Source of the DNA: an uncultured bacterium
Lineage (GTDB): Bacteria; Babelota; Babeliae; Babelales; RVW-14
Assembly (NCBI GenBank): GCA_963759805.1
Contig: CAVXAT010000001.1
Location: forward strand, 256,001 to 320,000
Length of the DNA stretch: 64,000 nucleotides
Reading direction: 5' to 3'
In this document: positions 4,842-61,836 of the stretch, piece after piece
Position numbering within the stretch: the first letter of the stretch is position 1
Layout of the letters: every line of letters begins with the position of its first letter
Notes under the pieces: generated by a model
What the model was told of the DNA's origin: nothing
What the model saw: the letters and a program-made list of their open reading frames with translations, nothing else
Databases searched by the model: none
Program-made: the position numbers and the translations under genes

Positions 4842-7094
4842 ATGAATATTTATTTTAGAAAAAACAGAGCATTGATTTCAAAAGTATTGCTGATAATTTT
4901 TGGTGCGAATTTTGGATTATCTTTTTTAGCCGCTGAGACGCAAGCATCTGGGGTACAAACATCCAGCGGGGTACAGACATCAAGCGCTGTGGATAATCGA
5001 CAAACCGTTTATTCGAAAATTTCGGATATGCATATGCCTTCTGTAAAAATGGAGGATTCTAAAGAGCAATCTGAAATGAAAAAAAAACAGGAGGAGAACG
5101 ATAAAGCTTATAATGAGATGCTGACCAATGCAAAGTTTAAAGAGATTAAAATTCCTGCAGTTGGGGATATTGAAAAGCTAAGATTGATATATCAGCTTTT
5201 TCATGGGCGCAGTTTGCAGCTCAATGATGTTATTGGTTGTAGTCGTCCGGTTCTTAATGACAATGTTTTTACCGATTTGCAGATCTACTGTGGTTCGATG
5301 ACCGATTTAAAGCACCATGTTTTTGGGGTTATTGATAATACAGTTACAAGTTTTGGTAAAGTTGAGTTACAACGCTTTTTATATCAAAGGTCTGATTCTG
5401 TTGAACAACTTAAATATGAAATTAAGAATAGGCAGGATATTGTAAAATACCTGGTTGAAAATCCATTTTTGTGCGACAAAATTGAAAAGCAGCTTAAAAT
5501 TGTTAAGCAGGGTGAGACGGATATGCTCTGGTTTTGGAAGGCGTTGGAATTTTCAATCCAAAAATATACTGAGCAGTATTATTTTAAGGGATTTTTGTCC
5601 GGATTAAATGAATCCACAGGGCCTCTTGAACTCCAATCTCTTATGACTACAGTTGTTGCTCCTGCAGACGTAGCTCTTATGGATGCTTTTATGGTAGGAG
5701 TTGGCGCAATTGTGTTGTATAAAGCTTCAAGAGTAGAAAACCTTTGGGCTATGGGTGGGGCAGTTGCCTACTCTGGCCTTTTACTTTTTGGCTCTTATAT
5801 GATGACAAGTATGATTCTTGGATTGGTTCAAACTTTCAATGGCATAACAAATGATATTCAGGATAAGCTGGCAAGTACGGCAAGAATAACGCAAGCTTCT
5901 GCAGCGCTTGCAAAAATTCTAGCTTCTGATGCCAAAATGCCAGTGCTTTGGGATAATTTCAAGAAACTGCAAACAAGTGCGATGCAGGCTCAAGATGGTC
6001 GTGATTTACAAGATCTGTTAAAAAAATTACAGGCAGGAACATTTAAAAGCGAACCTTCATATTTTTCGAACAAAGGGCGAGTGCTGGCGACTTGTAAAAA
6101 GATGTTGCGCTTGAAAGACAATTTTATCAATTCGATTAAGGCCATCGGCGAACTTGATGCATATCTCTCGATTGCAAAGCTCTATTTAAAACATGTAAAC
6201 AATTCTAATGCAAAATACTGCTTTCCTGAAATTATTGAATCAGACAGGCCGTATGTTAATGTAAGCAGAATGTGGCATCCATTTCTTAATCCTGACAAAG
6301 TTGTTACTAATGATATTGAACTTGGACAGGATCAGGCTCAACGAGACTCGTCTCAAAATGTTATTTTGACAGGTCCGAATGCTGCGGGTAAATCAACATT
6401 CTTAAAGGCTTTCACAGTCTCATTAATTTTGGCACAGTCTTTTGGTATAGCTCCTGCCAGTGCAATGAGATTTACCCCATTCATTAAAATCAATACTTAT
6501 TTAAATATATCAGATGAAGAGGGTAGGGAGTCGTTGTTTCAGGCCGAAATGCGACGAGCTCAAGAGCTACTTCGTTCAATCAAGGGGTTGAAAAAAGGTG
6601 AATTTAGCTTTGTTATTATGGATGAAATTTTCACTGGCACAAATCCAAAAGAAGGAACTGCGGGTGCATATGGGGTGGCAAAGAGCGTGTCTAAATATCT
6701 ACAATCAATCTGTATTGTTGCAACACACTTCAAGAAACTTACAGAACTTGAAGAGGATACGAATGGAAGATTTAAGAATTACAAAGTCTATGTAAATAAA
6801 TCTGATACGGGTGATATTGATTATCCTTATAAAGTTGTGCCTGGAATTTCAGATCAAACAATAGCGTTACTGTTATTGGAGAAACAGGGCTTTGATCGAG
6901 AGATTTTGGATGAGGCTTATAAAGCGTTTAATGATGATGAATATGTTCTTGATAGCGTGAAGGGTGAACCTGCTAAACTGGTTCGTGTAGTTGATTTAGG
7001 GGCTGAAGCTGGTGAATATGTTCTTGATAGCGTGAAGGGTGAACCTGCCAAATTGGTTCGTGTAGTTGATTTAGGGGCTGAAGCTGCAGCGTGA
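4842..7094 (+). CDS. MutS-related ATPase (domain V without mismatch-binding domain), with signal peptide, TM hairpin and duplicated C-terminal peptide
   Basis: LTGPNAAGKST, SLFQAEMRR, MDEIFTGT and ATHF motifs; hydrophobic N-terminus and central TM segments; GGGAG RBS before ATG 4842. Confidence 0.88.
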   Translation: MNIYFRKNRALISKVLLIIFGANFGLSFLAAETQASGVQTSSGVQTSSAVDNRQTVYSKISDMHMPSVKMEDSKEQSEMKKKQEENDKAYNEMLTNAKFKEIKIPAVGDIEKLRLIYQLFHGRSLQLNDVIGCSRPVLNDNVFTDLQIYCGSMTDLKHHVFGVIDNTVTSFGKVELQRFLYQRSDSVEQLKYEIKNRQDIVKYLVENPFLCDKIEKQLKIVKQGETDMLWFWKALEFSIQKYTEQYYFKGFLSGLNESTGPLELQSLMTTVVAPADVALMDAFMVGVGAIVLYKASRVENLWAMGGAVAYSGLLLFGSYMMTSMILGLVQTFNGITNDIQDKLASTARITQASAALAKILASDAKMPVLWDNFKKLQTSAMQAQDGRDLQDLLKKLQAGTFKSEPSYFSNKGRVLATCKKMLRLKDNFINSIKAIGELDAYLSIAKLYLKHVNNSNAKYCFPEIIESDRPYVNVSRMWHPFLNPDKVVTNDIELGQDQAQRDSSQNVILTGPNAAGKSTFLKAFTVSLILAQSFGIAPASAMRFTPFIKINTYLNISDEEGRESLFQAEMRRAQELLRSIKGLKKGEFSFVIMDEIFTGTNPKEGTAGAYGVAKSVSKYLQSICIVATHFKKLTELEEDTNGRFKNYKVYVNKSDTGDIDYPYKVVPGISDQTIALLLLEKQGFDREILDEAYKAFNDDEYVLDSVKGEPAKLVRVVDLGAEAGEYVLDSVKGEPAKLVRVVDLGAEAAA
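6939..7088 (+). repeat. Two tandem 75-bp units encoding EYVLDSVKGEPAKLVRVVDLGAEA; third copy at 10011-10091
   Basis: Units start at 6939 and 7014; internal differences are synonymous. Confidence 0.95.
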
Positions 7095-7105
7095 TAGATA
7101 ATAAA

Positions 7106-7168
7106 AGTTAGCTTATTGATTTTAAATTAATTTACGCCGGAGGAGTTAGTAAAATCCTCCGGCATTTT
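7106..7168 (+). terminator. 3' element/terminator, copy 2
   Basis: Stem GCCGGAGGA/TCCTCCGGC followed by T-rich sequence. Confidence 0.8.
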
Positions 7169-7210
7169 AATTGGTTTTTTTATTGCGAGCTTTTTTGTAA
7201 TAGGTGTGTG

Positions 7211-8428
7211 ATGAGAAATACTTTTGAGCGTTGGTTTTTTAGATTAGCGTTGCTGTCTTTTTTATTACTAAATTCTTTGTGCTTAAACGGCATGGCTTCG
7301 AGTGCTGGTACTGAGCAGCAACAAATCCCAGCAGACCAAAAAGAAGAGTTATCTGAGCTCAATAAAGAGTTTGGGACTGTAGCTGCTGAGTTTGACAAAG
7401 AGCTTCCAGCATTACAGTCATTAAGAGAAGAGTTTAGTAAATTTTTAGATGATGTAGATTTGAATGATTCTGGATGGTTTAAGGATTTTAGAAACAAAGT
7501 ATTGTATGAATTGCCGACAGAAGGCTCTTTTACTATGGGCATTTATGGTGAAGATGTTTTACATTTACTGTTTTTAATTGCATATGTCTTTGTTGATAAG
7601 ATTTTTTTTGATAATGTGAAAAAGTATTATTTCCAAATGGTTTCTAGTAATTTCAAAGAAAAACGAGAATTGTTGCGATCTTGTTATAATGAAATTTCCG
7701 GCTTGGAGACAAAGAAATTCTTAGAAAATTCAAAATTAAAACAAAAATTCATAAAAGATTGTTGTTCTAGTTTGAATATCGATCGAGGCCTTGATTATAG
7801 GCTGTTCTCTAACATTTTTATTAATCTGTTTTTTAAAGAGATAGTTAAGTTCTTTGAACATCAGGTATTTCCCTTCGGCAATACAGGATTCTTTGCACTT
7901 TTAAGAAAGGAAAAAAAGAATGCGGAACGCCATGTTGTTTCTCTTTATCCGTTTATTGAATTCTATTTGAAGCCGTATTTTTTTGGAATAACTCCGTTTG
8001 TAGAAGATAAAATGCCTGTGGTGAGGGGCTTTTTGCTTCGACTGGTTGGATGGGATTATAAAATTTTATCGTCGTATGGTTTTGATTTGTGCAAACGAAC
8101 TATGGTTTTAGGGATATTTTTGAAGAGATTAACCGTGTGGTATCAAAACTTATTTAAAGTCTATCTTGATAAAAATATGGAACTATTTTTAAAGATTTTA
8201 TCAGATTTAAATGCGACAAGTGCAACGGATGATGAGCATTTCAAGGCAGCGGAAACAGAACTTAAGGATTTTATTACAAAGGGCTTTGAGTGCTCTTTTA
8301 AAACATGGTTTGATTATAAAAATAGCTGCTGTGCTAACTTTGGTCTGCTATTTGAAACGGTGCTATTATTGCCGGCTATTTGTAAGGGTGGAAAATTAAT
8401 TTACGATAATTATGCTGCGAAAGGTTAA
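7211..8428 (+). CDS. Hypothetical membrane/exported protein
   Basis: About 405-aa ORF with signal-like N-terminus (LALLSFLLLNSLCLNG), a coiled coil and hydrophobic stretches; closely coupled to the next gene. Confidence 0.75.
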   Translation: MRNTFERWFFRLALLSFLLLNSLCLNGMASSAGTEQQQIPADQKEELSELNKEFGTVAAEFDKELPALQSLREEFSKFLDDVDLNDSGWFKDFRNKVLYELPTEGSFTMGIYGEDVLHLLFLIAYVFVDKIFFDNVKKYYFQMVSSNFKEKRELLRSCYNEISGLETKKFLENSKLKQKFIKDCCSSLNIDRGLDYRLFSNIFINLFFKEIVKFFEHQVFPFGNTGFFALLRKEKKNAERHVVSLYPFIEFYLKPYFFGITPFVEDKMPVVRGFLLRLVGWDYKILSSYGFDLCKRTMVLGIFLKRLTVWYQNLFKVYLDKNMELFLKILSDLNATSATDDEHFKAAETELKDFITKGFECSFKTWFDYKNSCCANFGLLFETVLLLPAICKGGKLIYDNYAAKG

Positions 8429-8432
8429 GTAT

Positions 8433-10091
8433 ATGGATTTTGTAAGTAAGTGGAGAGAGCGCTTAGGTTGTAGTGGATATTTTAAGATTTTGATATTTGG
8501 CTTAGGGTTTACGTGTTTAAATAACGCTTATGCAATGCAAGGTGGGCATGGAATTCAAGATGCGAAGTGGTTACAGGATTTAGCTAAGGAAATGGAGAGA
8601 GCGGGAGAGAATTTTGCCAGGGAGAGAGAGGATCACAAGCGAGAGAATGCACATCAAGAAGAATGGTTAGTTGATGAGATACGAAATTTGAAAGCGAATG
8701 GTGTTGACGATAGTGATCCACGAATAAAGCAGGCAGAGAGAAGAATCGGAGAATTAGCTCAGGAAAAACAGACGCAAGATAAGATTGGTGATTTCGGGCT
8801 AGATGTTGTAAAGGGAGTTTGGGGCGCTGTTTTGGGGGATTATAACAAAGAGCAACGTATTGAAGAGGTGCAGAGAAAAGCATTGGCGGATGGTTTTATG
8901 AATAATAAAGGAGCAAGAGAGCGCCTGCAAGCGCTTATGGACCGGATGAAGGATCCAGAGCAGTTATTAAAGTTTGCTATTTTTGCTGCCGGTGTAACAC
9001 TCGGCGTTGTTGGTGTTTATTACGTGGTCAAATTATTTTATCAGTATGTTGAAGCCAGAATGGGCAAACCAAATCTTGTTAGAGAGTCTTCAATTCATGG
9101 ATTTAAACAGGCATTGAAGAAATTCGTGATTTCGATTTTCAGCGGCGAACAGGATCTTGAAGCTGTTCTGAGTGATATTATTTTATCACCTGACATTCAG
9201 GAGAAAGTTTACTTGTTGGCAGATGACACGAAGAACACAAAAGAGTTTAATTTGCCATACCAAAACGTTTTATTTTACGGTCCTCCGGGAACAGGTAAAA
9301 CAGAGTTTGCAAAAATTCTTTCAAGATATTCAGATATGGATTATGCAGTACTTTCGGGCGCCGATTTTAGTCAGTTTAAAAACGGAGAAGGCATTACAGA
9401 GTTGCATAAGTTATTTGAATGGGCAAATAAGAGTAAGCGCGGTTTGATTATTTTTATAGATGAGGCGGATGCCTGTTTTAGAGATCGTGCAACGCTTGAT
9501 AAGGATGGTGTCAATCTTGTTAACGCTTTCTTGTCTCATACGGGATCAAGCTCTGATAAATTTATGATTATTCTTGCTACAAATTATGAAAATGAGCTTG
9601 ATGCAGCGGTTAGAAGCCGTATTCACAAAAAGGTTCCATTCCTATTACCGGCACTTGAAGAACGCTTTAAAATTTTTAAGTTAAAACTTACAAAGTATGT
9701 TCTTAACGATAAGCGTGCTTATTACAAAGAGGGTGTTTGGGTTGAAGAACATCTTGAAGTTGAGGCTGCAGTGGATGATGCATTCTGGAGAGAGATCTCT
9801 ACGCGAACTGAAGGCTTTTCTGGCCGTGACATAGACCAAGCGATTGGTGAAATTAGATTGCGTGCGTATCGTTCAGGCGCTAATCTTGTGACAAAAGAGA
9901 TTGTCGAAACCGTTATTAAAGATAAAATTGCTCAGATAAAGAAAGATAAAGAGTCAACAGAGTATCAAAAGCAGAAGTTTGAGCATATGTTTAATATTCA
10001 TAAGAATGATGAATATGTTCTTGATAGCGTTAAAGGCGAACCTGCTAAATTAGTCCGTGTATCTGATTTGCCAGCTGATGCTCTTGCTTAA
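8433..10091 (+). CDS. AAA+ ATPase, ATAD3-like, with signal peptide, coiled coil and TM segment
   Basis: [15 protein letters not shown], ILATN and EGFSGRDI motifs; pre-AAA segment [16 protein letters not shown]. Alternative start at 8412. Confidence 0.88.
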   Translation: [552 protein letters not shown]

Positions 10092-10102
10092 GAAAGAACG
10101 AA

Positions 10103-10165
10103 AGTTGGTTTGTTAGTTTTAAATTAATTTGCACCGGCGGAAGTAATAAAATCCGCCGGTTTTTT
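10103..10165 (+). terminator. 3' element/terminator, copy 3
   Basis: TTTTAAATTAATTTGC then stem ACCGGCGGA/TCCGCCGGT and a T tract. Confidence 0.8.
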
Positions 10166-10175
10166 ACACTTTATA

Positions 10176-10222
10176 CCGCTCGTCCTGAGTGATTTGCGTA
10201 GCAAATCGTATCGAAGGATGCG
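10176..10222. repeat. REP-like palindrome, left arm of a 47-bp inverted repeat around the GIY-YIG gene
   Basis: CCGCTCGTCCTGAGTGATTTGCGTAGCAAATCGTATCGAAGGATGCG; exact reverse complement at 10599-10645. Confidence 0.95.
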
Positions 10223-10296
10223 AGTTGTCACTCAGCATGAGCGGAATCGTATCGACGGATGAAGCGGCGTCAACGCAGTGCACTGATGGGAGAGAT

Positions 10297-10590
10297 ATGG
10301 AATATTTTTATGTCTATATTTTAAAATGCAGCGATGGATCTTACTATACTGGGCACACCGACAACATTGAAGCACGTATATCTCAGCATCAACAAGGCTT
10401 GATAAAAAGTTGTTATACTGCAACCCGGTTACCGGTAATTGTTGTTTTTGTTCAAACATTTGGAAGCAGGAATGAAGCATTTATTGCTGAACGCAAAATA
10501 AAGGGTTGGTCGAAATCCAAAAAAGAGGCTTTAATAAGGGGGGATTGGGGATTGATTTCATTTTTATCAAAAAAAATATTTTTAAAATAA
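10297..10590 (+). CDS. GIY-YIG nuclease (UPF0213/YhbQ-like)
   Basis: FYVYILKCSDGSYYTGHT, RISQH and AERKIKGWSKSKKEALI; ATG 10297 follows GGGAGAG. Confidence 0.92.
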   Translation: MEYFYVYILKCSDGSYYTGHTDNIEARISQHQQGLIKSCYTATRLPVIVVFVQTFGSRNEAFIAERKIKGWSKSKKEALIRGDWGLISFLSKKIFLK

Positions 10591-10598
10591 ATGTTGGC

Positions 10599-10645
10599 CG
10601 CATCCTTCGATACGATTTGCTACGCAAATCACTCAGGACGAGCGG
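10599..10645. repeat. REP-like palindrome, right arm
   Basis: Perfect reverse complement of 10176-10222. Confidence 0.95.
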
Positions 10646-10779
10646 CCAGTGATGGTATGTCGGGATGGGTAGTCAAAAAATTTGCGAATTCCAGGTTGGT
10701 GCAAATCCCAGATTAGGTGGAAAAAATCTATGTCTGACTGTTATAACGAACGTGCACGCTTAGGGCTTTTAAAAAAATT

Positions 10780-10840: not shown

Positions 10841-12772
10841 TTACTTCTTTTCTTCGAAGTCTGTGTCGATTGGTTTGTCATTTGGGTTACTGTTCTCGCC
10901 GGATTTATTGTCATCGGTGCTTTGGTTACCGGAAGTTTGTTGCCCTTCGGGGCCAGCCTGTTGCTGCTTCTCTTTGTATAAAATTTCGGCAATTTTGTAC
11001 GATGCTTGAATCAGATCATCAGCTGCTTTTGCAAGTGCTTGTGCATCATTCTCATTTTCTTTAAGCGCTTTTTTAGCAGTTTCAATTGCAGCTTCGACAC
11101 TGTTTACTTCAGCGATTGGAAGTTTGTCTTTGTTCTCTTTGATTGTCTTTTCGATCTGCATGATTGTACTGTCCAGATGATTGCGCTTGTCGACAACTTC
11201 GCGTTGTTTTTTGTCATCTTCCGCATGTAGTTGTGATTCTTTTACCAGCTTATCAATCTCTTCTTTGGAAAGACCTGAGGATGATGTTATTGTGATGTTT
11301 TGTTCCTTGCCGGTTCCAATATCTTTTGCCGATACGTGAACTATACCATTTGCATCGATGTCGAATGTTACTTCGATTTGTGGCATGCCGCGTGGGGCTG
11401 AAGGGATTCCATCTAATCTGAATCTACCTAGCGTTTTATTATCTTTGGCAAATTCTCTTTCGCCTTGTAGAACATGGATGTCAACAGCAGTTTGATTATC
11501 TTCAGCTGTTGAGAAAGTTTGTGATTTTTTTGTTGGAATAGTAGTGTTACGTTCAATGATTTTTGTTGATACGCCGCCCATTGTTTCAATACCAAGTGAG
11601 AGGGGGGTTACATCGAGCAACAGCACGTCCGTTACATCTCCGCCCAGAACGCCGCCTTGAATTGCAGCTCCGACAGAGACAACTTCATCGGGGTTTACAG
11701 ATTTATTTGGCTCTTTGCTAAAGAAATCTTTAATCATAGATTGTACTTTGGGGATTCGGGTTGAACCACCAACCAATATTACCTCTTGAATTTCTTTGGT
11801 TGTAAGCCCTGCGTCAGCGAGTGCCTTTTTGCATGGTTCGAAGAGCTTGTTGAAAATATCTTGGCAAAGATTTTCAAATTTTGCTCTGGACAATTTGAGT
11901 GTCAAATGTTTTGGGCCGGTTGCATCTGCGGTGATATATGGAAGATTGATTTCAGTTTCAGTTGTAGAAGATAGCTCGATTTTGGCTTTTTCGGCAGCCT
12001 CTTTTAGTCGTTGTAGTGCAAGTTTGTCTTTTTTTAAATCGATACCATTTTCTTTTTTAAATTCATCTACTAAGAAATTTATAATTTTTTCATCGATATT
12101 GTCACCACCGAGCATTGTGTCGCCATTTGTGGATTTAACTTCGACTACTCCATCGCCAACTTCTAATACTGATATATCAAATGTTCCTCCACCGAAGTCA
12201 AAAACTGCAATTGTTTCGTTTGTTTTTTTATCCATCCCGTAGGCGAGTGCTGCGGCAGTTGGTTCGTTGATGATTCGTTTTACGTCTAGGCCCGCGATTT
12301 TACCGGCATCTTTGGTCGCTTGACGTTGTGCGTCATTGAAGTATGCGGGAACGGTGATAACTGCAGAGACAATTTTTTCGCCCAGATAATCCTCGGCCGC
12401 TTGTTTTAATTTCTGCAGAACGGCTGAAGATATTTCTTGTGGTGAAAGCTGCTTGCCTTGAATTTCGATTGCAACGTCGCCATTACTGGCTTCAACCATC
12501 TTATATGGGACAAGATGCTTTTCCTCGCTGGTTAAACTTGAAAATTTGCGGCCAATGAATCTTTTGGCAGAATAAATTGTGTTTTCTGGGTTTGTTATTG
12601 CTTGACGCTTTGCAATTGCGCCGACTAAACGTTGTCCGTCTTTTGTGAATGCAACGATGGATGGGGTTGTGTTGGCACCCTCCTGGTTTGGGATGACTTT
12701 GAAAGTTCCCGCTTCCATTACTGATACAACCGAGTTAGTTGTACCTAGATCTATTCCTATAATTTTTGCCAT
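10841..12772 (-). CDS. dnaK: Chaperone DnaK (Hsp70)
   Basis: [19 protein letters not shown] and [15 protein letters not shown]; full length. Confidence 0.99.
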
Positions 12773-46100: not shown

Positions 46101-47657
46101 CTAAAAATTTGTATCCAAGAATTTTAATTTTTCATGCCCAACGTAAATAAGTGGAATCCCACTTAAAACAGATTTCAGCCTCGCCCCATCCTGCATGATT
46201 TTTTTAAAGTAACCCATAAACCAGCTGTCATTCACGGAAAATATGATATATGCAGAATTCGCCTGGCAACCCGCTGGTTTATCCCGGCTCCCGGCATTAC
46301 ATGCCTTAACAATCCCAGAAAAAGTTTTATAACTCGAGACAAAAAACAGCTCTGAGCATATTTGTGGAATAAAAATGATCCTGCCAACTGCAGTTGGGTT
46401 TTGCGAATCCCCAATACAGTTAAATTCAAAATAATTCTCTTGTTTTAACTTTTTTGCCCTGGAGAATTGAGAAATCTCTTGGGAAAAAGCTTTATTCAAA
46501 AAAATACGTTGCAACACTTCAAGCTTTTTATAAAAACGGGGGATTTTTTCTACAAATGGCACGCAATGTTTTTTAACATAAATTTTTTTTATGCGACGTT
46601 GATTTACCCAACTCACCGCCTGACAAATTTTTCCCTTAAATTCGTGCTGTGTCCCTATGAACAGATGTGCATTGTCAGGCAGAACGCTACTCCACAGCTC
46701 AATAAACCCGGGATAGGTATTCAACGGAAAAGGAAATGAACTCTCCGGCGCAAGGATTATAAACTGCCTGTCTTCATCCCGTCTCTCCCACAACTTTAGA
46801 TCACAAAGTTTTCTGTAAATCTGATACTCATAGCTAACCGAATTTTGGTCAAAAGATGCAGTATCCGGTTTTAGATAAATAAACTCGACGCCGTCTGCTG
46901 CTGCTAGTTTGCAAGCGGGCAAGCCAGACTGATAGCCAACTCCCCTGCCAAACAAAATACCTGCAAACACACATGTTTTCGTAAATAATTCAAAATTAAC
47001 CAACGGGATTAATGGATTTAAAAACGGATAACCCTCTATTCTCCCCAAAAACCACAACGCATAATTTTCAAGCAGATAAAAATAGCAGTAGCAAGTAATA
47101 AGAAATATTGAAAATTGTGCAGCACTATAACAGTAATAGTCGCAAGAAGAGAAATAGTCGCGAACTTTTCTGAAAATTAACTGCGTAACCCAAACCCACA
47201 CAGCACTTGTAAAAGAAAAATAAGTTATGCTGAACAGATAGACAAAAATAGCAAAGCATGTGCCGGATTTTACTTTATCCAGAAGCAGAACCAATAACCA
47301 GATAAAATGGAATGAAAATACGAGCACGCCCCAAGCCAAACCGTACCAGAAAACAGAAGGCCCAAACTTGCCCGCTCGTGGTGAGTGCCGGCCGATCCCT
47401 CGATACACGCACTGCGTGCGCACTCGGGACGAGCGGCCGGTGTATCGAACCATGCGGGCATAAAATTTACTTGCGATGCTACCATTTAGCGTCTGTCCCA
47501 CTTTAATTAAAACCCAGAAAACCAAAAATAAAGAGGGCAAAACAAGAAATCCAAGATATTCAGAAGAAAAGAAAGCCACATCATAAAGAAGCGCTGAGAG
47601 TAAAATAAGTAACCATAAAAGAGATCCCGGTACCATTTTGATCTTTGGTTTCAGCAT
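46101..47657 (-). CDS. lnt: Apolipoprotein N-acyltransferase-like protein (divergent)
   Basis: N-terminal TMs plus nitrilase-fold E-K-C motifs (APESSF, YVKKHCVPFVE, QICSE) and NDSWF. Confidence 0.75.
   Translation of the reverse strand: MLKPKIKMVPGSLLWLLILLSALLYDVAFFSSEYLGFLVLPSLFLVFWVLIKVGQTLNGSIASKFYARMVRYTGRSSRVRTQCVYRGIGRHSPRAGKFGPSVFWYGLAWGVLVFSFHFIWLLVLLLDKVKSGTCFAIFVYLFSITYFSFTSAVWVWVTQLIFRKVRDYFSSCDYYCYSAAQFSIFLITCYCYFYLLENYALWFLGRIEGYPFLNPLIPLVNFELFTKTCVFAGILFGRGVGYQSGLPACKLAAADGVEFIYLKPDTASFDQNSVSYEYQIYRKLCDLKLWERRDEDRQFIILAPESSFPFPLNTYPGFIELWSSVLPDNAHLFIGTQHEFKGKICQAVSWVNQRRIKKIYVKKHCVPFVEKIPRFYKKLEVLQRIFLNKAFSQEISQFSRAKKLKQENYFEFNCIGDSQNPTAVGRIIFIPQICSELFFVSSYKTFSGIVKACNAGSRDKPAGCQANSAYIIFSVNDSWFMGYFKKIMQDGARLKSVLSGIPLIYVGHEKLKFLDTNF
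47369..47460. repeat. Nested REP-like palindromes in frame within lnt
   Basis: Outer GCCCGCTCGTGGTGAGTG...TGTATCGAACCATGCGGGC containing an inverted inner copy. Confidence 0.9.
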
Positions 47658-59434: not shown

Positions 59435-60458
59435 ACCTGAGTTCGACGTTATAAAAAGTTAAGCATGGGCTGGTAAATTAAGCATAAACTTGCTTCGAAG
59501 TGATGGCTTTTTTGGCAAGAAACAATATGCAACAAGTCCGGCAATAAGATTGACAACAAAGTTTGTTGGGCTGCGATGTCGAGAGTGCTCTATTTGACAG
59601 GTTTCTTTGAGTATACAGTTGACTGATTCTATGATTCCACGCTTACTAAGGCCAAGTCTATCTTCCATTTCCATGATTTGAATTTTCATTTTTTTCTTCA
59701 ATTTTGTAATGAGTTTTATGCCTTTTGCAAAAAGCGCGTCAAAGAGCTTCTTTGAAATATATCCTCGATCTCCCCAAAGCTTTCCGAAGCACTTTCGGGC
59801 AAGGTTGGTTACTACAGATGCGTTGTTGTCGGCAACATTACCAGGTGTGAGCATGAAAGATACTATCTCTCCGCACTAATTGATAATCAGATGAAGTTTA
59901 AATCCATAAAACCATCCAGTAGACGTTTTTCCGCGTGCAGCAATTCCAGAAAACACCTTGTTTCTGTTGATTCGCAAATTATGACATACATGAAGCTTTG
60001 TTGAATCGATAAATCCAAAGCCTGTACATTTGTTTTTACAACACAAATTCATAAAAATTGTTAACGGCACAAGAGCCTGCGGAACCAGCTCTATAAAGCG
60101 ATTATAGCTGACGATCCCGTCGAATGCGCCCTTCAAATCGCCACATTCTTTATAATATTTTTTAAAAGTACGATATCCAGAGTGATGAAAATAAATGAGT
60201 ATCGTCAGAATGTCACTGAGAGACATTCTTTTCTGTTCTCTTTTTACCAATGCCGATAAATCTGCAGAAATTGAATGTGCATCTAGATGTGTTTTAAAAT
60301 CTTTACAAAAATTGTCTACGTCATAAAAAATTTGAGTTAAAATCATTTTACTTCCCTTTTTGAAATCCTTTTTTAGATTGGTTTTAACATTCTAAATCTA
60401 TAGAGGATTTGCTTTAAGGGAAGTCCTTTTCAAAGAATTTTAATTGTCGAACTCAGGT
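59435..60458 (-). mobile_element. IS982 family element
   Basis: Terminal IRs ACCTGAGTTCGAC / GTCGAACTCAGGT; 1024 bp; no exact TSD. Confidence 0.92.
59459..60346 (-). pseudogene. IS982 transposase with in-frame TAG
   Basis: FIDST, GWFYGFKLHLIIN*CGEI, WGDRGYIS and KRGIIES in one frame; stop at 59876-59878. Confidence 0.9.
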
Positions 60459-61034: not shown

Positions 61035-61583
61035 ATGACAATGCAATATAAATTCACTTTTACCCCAATTGAAGAAAAGAATTTTCCATCATTACAATCA
61101 TTATTACAAAAGTGGTTTGAAATGCCTCATGTTGAACAATGGTGGCCTGTGCCAAGAGAAGGCGAGGATTTTTTCAACTCATTTCTAAAACGCATTCGTT
61201 CCGGCACACAACCTTATCTTGTTTTGTGTAATGATATAGCTATCGGCTACATCCAATGTTATAGCGTTGATTTAACCAAAAGCACGTGGTTGCCTAAATT
61301 ATCCGACAATAAAACCGGCAATATAATTGGCATCGACCAGTTTATTGGTGAACCAGATTATCTGAACAAGGGTATCGGAACTCTCTTTATCAAAGAGTTT
61401 GTTAAAAATCTTATAGCCAAAGATAAAACCTTGACCATTGTTGTGGATCCGGATCCAACAAATGCTGCCGCAATCAGGTGTTATGAAAAAGTAGGCTTTA
61501 AAAAACTTGGTGAATACCAGGCGCCATGGGGCCCAGCCTTGGTTATGAGCTATAAGTTGAATGCTAAAAATTGCCAATTTTGA
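61035..61583 (+). CDS. GNAT acetyltransferase, AAC(6')-Ib/Ie-like
   Basis: PHVEQWW, IGYIQ, GIDQFIGE and DPDPTNAAAIRCYEKVGF. Confidence 0.88.
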   Translation: MTMQYKFTFTPIEEKNFPSLQSLLQKWFEMPHVEQWWPVPREGEDFFNSFLKRIRSGTQPYLVLCNDIAIGYIQCYSVDLTKSTWLPKLSDNKTGNIIGIDQFIGEPDYLNKGIGTLFIKEFVKNLIAKDKTLTIVVDPDPTNAAAIRCYEKVGFKKLGEYQAPWGPALVMSYKLNAKNCQF

Positions 61584-61700: not shown

Positions 61701-61836
61701 AGGCGCGCTCGTGGTTCCTTCGACAGGCTCCCAGGCTTCGCCCTTCGTGTCTACGCCGGGCACGGCAGGACGAGCGCCATCGAGCTGGCGCGCTCGTGGT
61801 GAGCTTGTCGAACCATCACCGATAGGTGACGCGCCG
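61701..61836. repeat. Cluster of nested REP-like palindromes between convergent genes
   Basis: GGCGCGCTCGTGGT twice, CCTTCGACAGGCTC[insert]AGGACGAGCG and GGTGAGCTTGTCGAACC. Confidence 0.85.

Follow-up and report, generated by a model that had tools for sequence, protein, structure and literature searches.

A GIY-YIG nuclease gene of a UPF0213-related clade lies between CGYTC-tagged hairpins with tandem G-A mismatches in a Dependentiae-type genome

Proteins of the cd10448 group cleave single-stranded DNA immediately upstream of a hairpin that bears a tag, and 42% of cd10448 homologs have flanking hairpins on either side (Chenal et al. 2025, PMC11893778). In Neisseria, SsnA lowers transformation and the integration of repeat-bearing DNA, and the NTS-ssnA-NTS arrangement has been likened to IS200/REP systems and proposed to be a domesticated element (PMC11893778). 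The layout of a GIY-YIG gene between hairpins and the analogy with REP/RAYT pairs are therein already published. In RAYT/TnpA-REP systems an enzyme gene, here a HUH/Y1 transposase (PF01797), likewise lies between inverted copies of an abundant, GTAG-tagged palindromic repeat that also forms gene-less doublets; RAYTs are said to occur in a single copy and to be passed on mainly by vertical descent. Rickettsia palindromic elements (RPE) are palindromic repeats found in frame in conserved genes. The UPF0213 proteins YhbQ and YazA are encoded in fixed housekeeping operons without flanking hairpins, and the annotation of E. coli yhbQ is that of a nuclease of the DNA damage response. Finally, CGTC REPs consist of a CGTC, TGTC or CCTC terminal tag, an 8-9 bp stem and a 4-5 nt loop, and are stated to lack a dedicated transposase (Di Nocera et al. 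2013, PMC3733652).

We analysed a 64,000-nt stretch of DNA (the window; G000:C1:256001-320000) from a Dependentiae-type genome (G000; 1.5 Mb in 21 contigs, 89% complete). An initial annotation of the window had described a 97-aa GIY-YIG gene between exact 47-bp inverted copies of a nested hairpin and had likened it to a RAYT with its REPs. The arrangement is as described: a 470-bp cassette (10176-10645) is made up of a hairpin, the nuclease gene and the inverted hairpin, its two 47-nt arms (10176-10222 and 10599-10645) are 100% complementary, and the ORF runs from an ATG at 10297 to a TAA at 10590. The cassette lies between an AAA ATPase gene (8412-10091, plus strand) and dnaK (10841-12772, minus strand). 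The features of the window are as follows.

10176..10222, plus strand: left hairpin unit, with the CGCTC tag at 10177-10181 and the stem at 10182-10186/10215-10219
10187-10188/10213-10214 and 10191-10207, plus strand: interior of the left unit, the former being the tandem G-A mismatches and the latter the inner hairpin with tip GCGTAGC
10228..10244, minus strand: tag-bearing half of an inverted unit, middle-layer remnant of a triple-nested left arm
10245..10261, plus strand: 3' half of a forward unit, outer-layer remnant of the nested left arm
10297..10590, plus strand: GIY-YIG nuclease, 97 aa, single-domain, UPF0213-related clade
10599..10645, minus strand: right hairpin unit, matching the left unit exactly in inverted orientation, tag outward
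47369..47460, plus strand: gene-less nested unit, in which an outer GGT/ACC unit (47373-47451) holds an inverted CCC/GGG unit (47397-47435)
61701..61836, plus strand: gene-less mosaic of interrupted GGT and CCT units, with an intact GGT/ACC unit at 61791-61814

The nuclease-less units that had been reported at 47369-47460 and 61701-61836 were recovered, and their CCT/AGG, GGT/ACC and CCC/GGG stems are real. The first of them lies in frame within an lnt-like gene (46101-47657, minus strand) and is missing from the ortholog in the congener G003; in the second, the CCT unit is split by a third hairpin type. The degenerate copy previously placed at about 10230-10266 is indeed repeat-derived, but it comprises the two half-units listed above and is not one copy. 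The triple-nested left arm is intact in a paralogous cassette on contig C9 and in a cassette of the congener G002, and the present start of the window cassette is the tag of the inner unit. Contigs of two public runs carry the cassette layout, with the match starting at 10176; among the runs listed there was no RNA run, the shares were 0.06-0.17 and no contig bridged the site. A promoter scan gave nothing above shuffles. Elsewhere in the window, an IS982-family transposase is present in two ORFs (59459-60346), and close by is a GNAT acetyltransferase (61035-61583) whose AAC(6')-family scores are weak and well short of the curated cut-offs.

Each arm of the cassette folds into a nested hairpin that comprises, in order, an unpaired CGCTC tag, a 5-bp stem, a tandem G-A/A-G mismatch, one G-C pair and a variable inner hairpin. 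Across units the tag reads CGCTC or CGTTC (CGYTC). The stem covaries: among 62 distinct short-form copies (kept from 68 in the genome and at homolog loci, with at least 3/5 positions pairing), pair 3 was C-G in 36 and G-C in 17, and pair 5 was T-A in 49 and C-G in 8. Tandem G-A pairs form stably in DNA when flanked as Y-GA-R. The structure is strand-specific, since the complement folds less well (predicted -6.2 kcal/mol compared with -8.4 kcal/mol for the hairpin strand). In addition, the GCGTAGC tip fits the GCGNAGC class of mini-hairpins, described as extraordinarily stable in DNA (PMC13037366). A known RNA family was ruled out as the identity of the repeat, Rfam matching neither the window repeats (E up to 1) nor 10 homolog loci (E up to 0.1).

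The 97-aa protein has PF01541 (GIY-YIG) as its sole Pfam domain (62 bits, E 7e-17), and NCBIfam holds no model for it. Residues Y7, Y17, G19, R27, H31 and E65 do not vary among 86 homologs. Of these, Y7, Y17 and E65 align with Y6, Y17 and E64 of SsnA, whose mutation stops cutting (Chenal et al. 2025, PMC11893778). An AlphaFold model of the protein (pLDDT 91) was compared with known structures using Foldseek; the UPF0213 proteins 1zg2 and 1ywl ranked 1 and 2, followed by Slx1, and the same two entries were matched by sequence in the PDB (E 2e-13 and 1e-11, respectively). Identity to the NTS-flanked protein L047 was 38%.

The pairing of gene and hairpin was assessed at 112 homolog loci, with five duplicates and five loci with short flanks left out. 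In the clade of the window protein (at least 80 bits; 53 members, including the window gene and its paralog), 39 members were bracketed by inward-facing CGYTC units, 46 had a unit on at least one side and none was bracketed by the Ssn-type hairpin. Conversely, 29 of 33 Ssn-type members were bracketed by their own hairpin and 0/33 by the CGYTC hairpin. The counts of 39/53 and 29/33 were obtained with motifs widened after misses had been seen; with motifs fixed beforehand, and duplicates included, they were 36/56 and 22/32. YhbQ, YazA and others were never bracketed (0/7; YhbQ/YazA branch 0/6), and one of nine weak GIY-YIG matches was. Orientation is fixed, with the tags outward, the reverse on both sides being seen in 2/56. 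Bracketed members come from at least four phyla (Dependentiae, Pseudomonadota, Chloroflexota and Thermodesulfobacteriota). A quick IQ-TREE run, limited by 97 columns, kept three groups apart, with 53 rows and SH-aLRT 97 for the window clade, 33 rows and 96 for the Ssn-type proteins and 6 rows and 86 for YhbQ/YazA. A compensatory A-T variant of the pair beside the mismatches flanks a six-member subclade (SH-aLRT 99); at least 13 copies of this variant occur in only 10 of 251 genomes, nine of which belong to one genus, and the best cassette of G147 is without it. Phage carriage was considered and rejected, as the best matches had 25-54% identity and 0/16 checked viral loci had the CGYTC hairpin. 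Two Ssn-clade genes, L044 and L051, are flanked by fully paired hairpins with the CGCTC tag; because the tag is also found there, it is the G-A stem that marks the window clade. We conclude that the pairing is clade-specific and that neither hairpin type is exchanged between the clades.

Within G000, GIY-YIG matches number six. The paralog on C9 is 88% identical to the window protein and is bracketed by the same CGYTC hairpin family. An Ssn-type gene (C1:132943, L003; region 132835-133277) lies between inverted, fully paired, TGTCAT-tagged hairpins, of which the genome has 49-57 copies, so an Ssn-type pair with its own repeats coexists with the window pair. Two genes of a third type (C18:49169, L004, and C5:3782, L005) are found downstream of tRNA genes and have a third kind of hairpin upstream, the kind that is also found inside about 14 CGYTC units at the first G-A mismatch. 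The last match lies in a 606-aa frame, which we take from its sequence to be UvrC. Small proteins of the third type were also seen at L310, L313-L316, L322-L324 and L326, often just after tRNA genes and with a GC-rich hairpin upstream.

Other candidate partners were examined for the same flanks. None of 1069 ORFs of at least 150 aa in G000 was bracketed by the CGYTC hairpin, compared with 39/53 members of the window clade, which answers a comparison of homolog flanks with those of other genes that the initial annotation had called for. It had also named a RAYT flanked by the same repeats as a finding that would speak against its proposal; none was seen. The five Y1 genes of G000 are IS200-like and unbracketed (0/5), and of 18 Y1/RAYT-like loci in repeat-rich relatives none was bracketed, with a one-sided unit at one of them (0/23 overall). 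Among 20 repeat-rich genomes, 13 had no Y1 match at all. A RAYT was accordingly dropped as the partner, as was DUF559, which has no match in the genome (89% complete).

We next compared gene and repeat across 251 genomes of the phylum, scoring the gene as present at a match of E <=1e-15. It was present in 76, several of them with four or five copies. At least 10 repeat copies were counted in 63 of the 76 gene-bearing genomes, compared with 37 of the 175 gene-less ones, and the median was 42 copies with the gene and 1 without. A reversed-pattern control never exceeded 9 copies. The median was higher with the gene in 11/11 families holding both kinds of genome, and genomes with only weak GIY-YIG matches had a median of 2 copies. 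The nominal p value of 2e-20 overstates this co-occurrence, because related genomes are not independent. Outside the phylum, genomes carrying the clade are mostly repeat-rich (e.g. 52, 79, 113, 127, 139, 160 and 255 copies), some not (6, 9 and 11); genomes reached via other GIY-YIG types have mostly 0-9 copies. Mismatches between gene and repeat run in both directions. At least 20 copies were present in 22/175 genomes in which the gene was not detected. Two of these, G122 and G144, are near-complete and have a single GIY-YIG match each, within a frame of more than 400 aa. Fewer than 8 copies were present in 10/76 gene-bearing genomes. Gene loss and incomplete assemblies could be part of the cause.

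Signs of movement were sought in the congeners. The three cassettes (window, C9 and G002) encode proteins of 82-88% identity and occupy three unrelated sites, and at their right ends the match stops 1-2 nt outside the tag. Empty sites in relatives, which it had been suggested to look for, were found for the C9 paralog: its flanking genes are about 835 bp apart in G000 compared with about 20 bp in G003 and about 70 bp in G002. The window locus has no clean empty counterpart, the congeners being also without two upstream genes; G003 has a mutS-like gene beside dnaK and G002 has ssb, so that a larger block differs. In the window, a mutS-like gene (twice) and the AAA ATPase gene end in an identical 17-residue peptide (6950-7160 and 10010-10160), and similar terminator-like hairpins follow the mutS-like gene and the AAA ATPase gene. 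Since the mutS-like gene adjoins dnaK in G003, the block 7208-10650 may have entered via the 17-residue-peptide repeat. Genome-wide, G003 has 4 motif hits in 1.43 Mb (of about 1.5 Mb). Both flanks are adjacent in G003 for 47 of 68 G000 elements (21 being unalignable), and the motif is missing there in 46 of these 47, one or two of which are poorly placed. Neither a target duplication nor a target motif was readable at the 72-87% identity of the flanks.

The hairpin unit has 83 copies in G000 by a strict motif, compared with 0 in three local shuffles, and a wider motif gives 94 copies, which merge into 68 elements; by 16-mer count the unit ranks among the top two repeat families of the genome. 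ORFs of at least 150 aa contain 25 of the 68 elements. In alaS, lnt, mnmA, uvrC, gnd, truA, gpmI and tkt the repeat is inserted in frame and is absent from the G003 orthologs; for these eight of nine genes checked, the alignment with G003 extends over most of the length with 41-64 gap columns, and in the ninth, dprA, it stops at the element. Strand bias relative to local GC skew was not apparent (43 lagging, 31 leading, p 0.2), and a replication-strand bias was rejected, an earlier apparent bias having come from the way the rows were listed.

Many gene-less copies have common arms that extend 20-35 nt past the tag, with varying endpoints. Four near-identical 290-bp elements (95-99%; G000:C1:41203, C1:159426, C4:96537 and C8:91644) consist of a dimer of the CGYTC unit within an Ssn-type hairpin, their ends being the Ssn-type tag, and the G002 cassette itself sits inside Ssn-type arms. 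About 14 units are split at one spot, between the G and the A of the first mismatch, by the third hairpin type. Hairpins thus land in hairpins, with nesting seen among three kinds. Many gene-less copies are enclosed by larger units whose ends are different, so their movement may be due to other enzymes. Outer arms with TA-rich inverted ends, MITE-like in character, were noted in many gene-less elements; some of these arms may resemble RPE-1 ends. A repeat unit is also carried by an 891-aa ORF (G000:C1:206144-208819) that we take from its sequence to be LigD-like; if this identity holds, an end-joining ligase would be a candidate insertion helper.

Compared with the Ssn/NTS system, the cassette has in common an approximately 95-aa single-domain GIY-YIG protein with catalytic Tyr, Tyr and Glu, a gene between inverted cognate hairpins, an unpaired 5' tag that gives the hairpin its direction, and tens to hundreds of gene-less copies. 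However, the window protein falls outside the Ssn clade, for which NTS-flanked proteins (L049 and kin, 33 rows) stand in for cd10448, and belongs to a separate clade structurally nearer UPF0213; the tag is CGYTC rather than CGTC, and a conserved tandem G-A with a variable inner hairpin takes the place of a fully paired stem. The published SRM pattern has 2 hits genome-wide, none of them at the cassette (0-4 in shuffles), and also misses the Ssn-type repeats of G000. The RAYT layout is shared, but the enzyme here is a GIY-YIG hydrolase with PF01541 only, the tag is CGCTC or CGTTC, and the window-clade gene is multi-copy and non-syntenic. CGTC REPs, compared by description only, share tagged hairpins, stems starting with an RY pair, mostly inverted dimers and some copies in frame in genes; the five-base tag (one base off) and the tandem G-A stem are points of difference in the present repeat, which may nonetheless overlap with one of the listed families, and the intragenic peptides of CGTC-1 to -4 are unlike those encoded here. 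With RPEs the repeat has in common in-frame insertion in conserved genes, the core unit being different. Nucleases of the UPF0213 (YhbQ/YazA) and Slx1 types give the best sequence and fold matches (1zg2, 1ywl; also Slx1), but YhbQ and YazA form a separate branch, and the window clade occurs at unrelated sites. The feature is real and specific, likened to Ssn/NTS in its working and to RAYT/REP in its layout, its protein lying outside the Ssn clade and its enzyme being of a different kind from a RAYT. What is new is the separate UPF0213-related clade paired with a CGYTC-tagged tandem G-A hairpin. A literature search, with most subscription journals outside its coverage, returned no paper on this clade or this hairpin, and 13 of the 14 supplements of Chenal et al. 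(2025, PMC11893778) contain no mention of UPF0213 or cd10456.

The window protein probably cuts its cognate hairpin in single-stranded DNA. Empty sites and genome-level co-occurrence support spread of the hairpin; whether this spread is driven by the nuclease we consider evenly balanced. The GIY-YIG protein is predicted to bind the tagged hairpin in single-stranded DNA and to nick near the tag, with cutting that, from the behaviour of SsnA, would be strand-specific and a few bases 5' of the tag. As both tags point to the outside, each strand would receive one cut, at the 5' end of the element. GIY-YIG enzymes act on DNA by hydrolysis, with no covalent intermediate, so that insertion would need host recombination or repair. 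Host repair of the nicks would then spread the cassette and the gene-less hairpins, which is the weakest step of the scheme; repair-based insertion would be expected to give ragged ends and frequent landing in other hairpins. That the cassette is a small selfish element of this kind, in which the nuclease nicks the tagged hairpin and host repair spreads the cassette with gene-less hairpins, has in our estimate about an equal chance of being right or wrong. The earlier analogy with a mobiliser stands as regards bracketing, empty sites and the lack of a bracketed RAYT; the layout and the likeness had already been published in 2025, and, with many gene-less copies lying within other termini, the analogy is supported in part.

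Among other explanations, the protein might cut the hairpin as a host filter on incoming or recombining DNA, as SsnA does, with the repeats being spread by MITE-moving transposases or by the Ssn-type element. We regard this as rather unlikely, though the most probable of the alternatives. The reduced transformation that is the in vivo effect of SsnA (PMC11893778), the frequent position of gene-less copies in larger units with other ends, the repeat-rich genomes without the gene (22/175) and the IS200-like and IS982 genes of G000 all agree with it. Nevertheless, repeat load tracks the window-clade gene and not the Ssn-type gene, falling to a median of 2 where there are only weak matches; a fixed host function would not be expected of a gene that is multi-copy, patchy and found at unrelated sites; and in-frame insertions in alaS, mnmA, uvrC, truA and gpmI look selfish. 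It is improbable that the protein is a repair nuclease like Slx1 or YhbQ that selects for DNA structure, resolves hairpins or cruciforms and is kept where repeats are many, instead of generating them. Its nearest structures (UPF0213 1zg2 and 1ywl, then Slx1) and the annotation of E. coli yhbQ would suit such a role, and co-occurrence alone gives no direction, but a repair enzyme would have no need of cognate repeats on both sides, and YhbQ and YazA lie in repeat-free housekeeping operons on a separate branch.

Similarly improbable is that the gene is passive cargo of a hairpin-pair composite, or that the hairpin is an insertion hot spot, the protein having no special relation to it. The nesting of three kinds of hairpin, which shows hairpins to be insertion targets, is in keeping with this idea, as are the 7/53 clade members with no unit found on either side. 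However, of seven misses that were inspected, five show variant or nested units of the CGYTC hairpin. Moreover, none of the 1069 other ORFs is bracketed, nor are equally small GIY-YIG genes of the same genomes (0/33; 0/22), and orientation is fixed (reverse 2/56) in at least four phyla. Chance adjacency of a small gene to a repeat as common as this one (83-94 copies), or an assembly artefact, is very improbable: the layout recurs in 39/53 homologs from many assemblies and in the contigs of two public runs, and the contrast with 0/1069 ORFs refutes it.

Returning to the selfish-element reading, tiny GIY-YIG clades, each with its tagged hairpin, may constitute a third autonomous/non-autonomous system beside DDE transposases with MITEs and HUH enzymes with REPINs, one in which a nuclease without joining activity spreads its hairpin and its own gene by way of host repair; we advance this tentatively, as somewhat less probable than the reading itself. 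If true, CGTC-like REPs and RPE-like intragenic insertions would gain the mover they lack, and the structure recognised by the window clade would be a tandem G-A one in DNA. This bears on the spread of non-GTAG palindromic repeats, since no transposase was found for CGTC repeats (Di Nocera et al. 2013, PMC3733652). With two clade/hairpin pairs in one genome and filled and empty sites in congeners, specificity and mobilisation are directly testable with matched controls. If the hairpin is cut, it would offer a new specificity for single-stranded DNA tools, and site-specific cleavage of single-stranded DNA would reach beyond cd10448 into a UPF0213-related clade present in at least four phyla.
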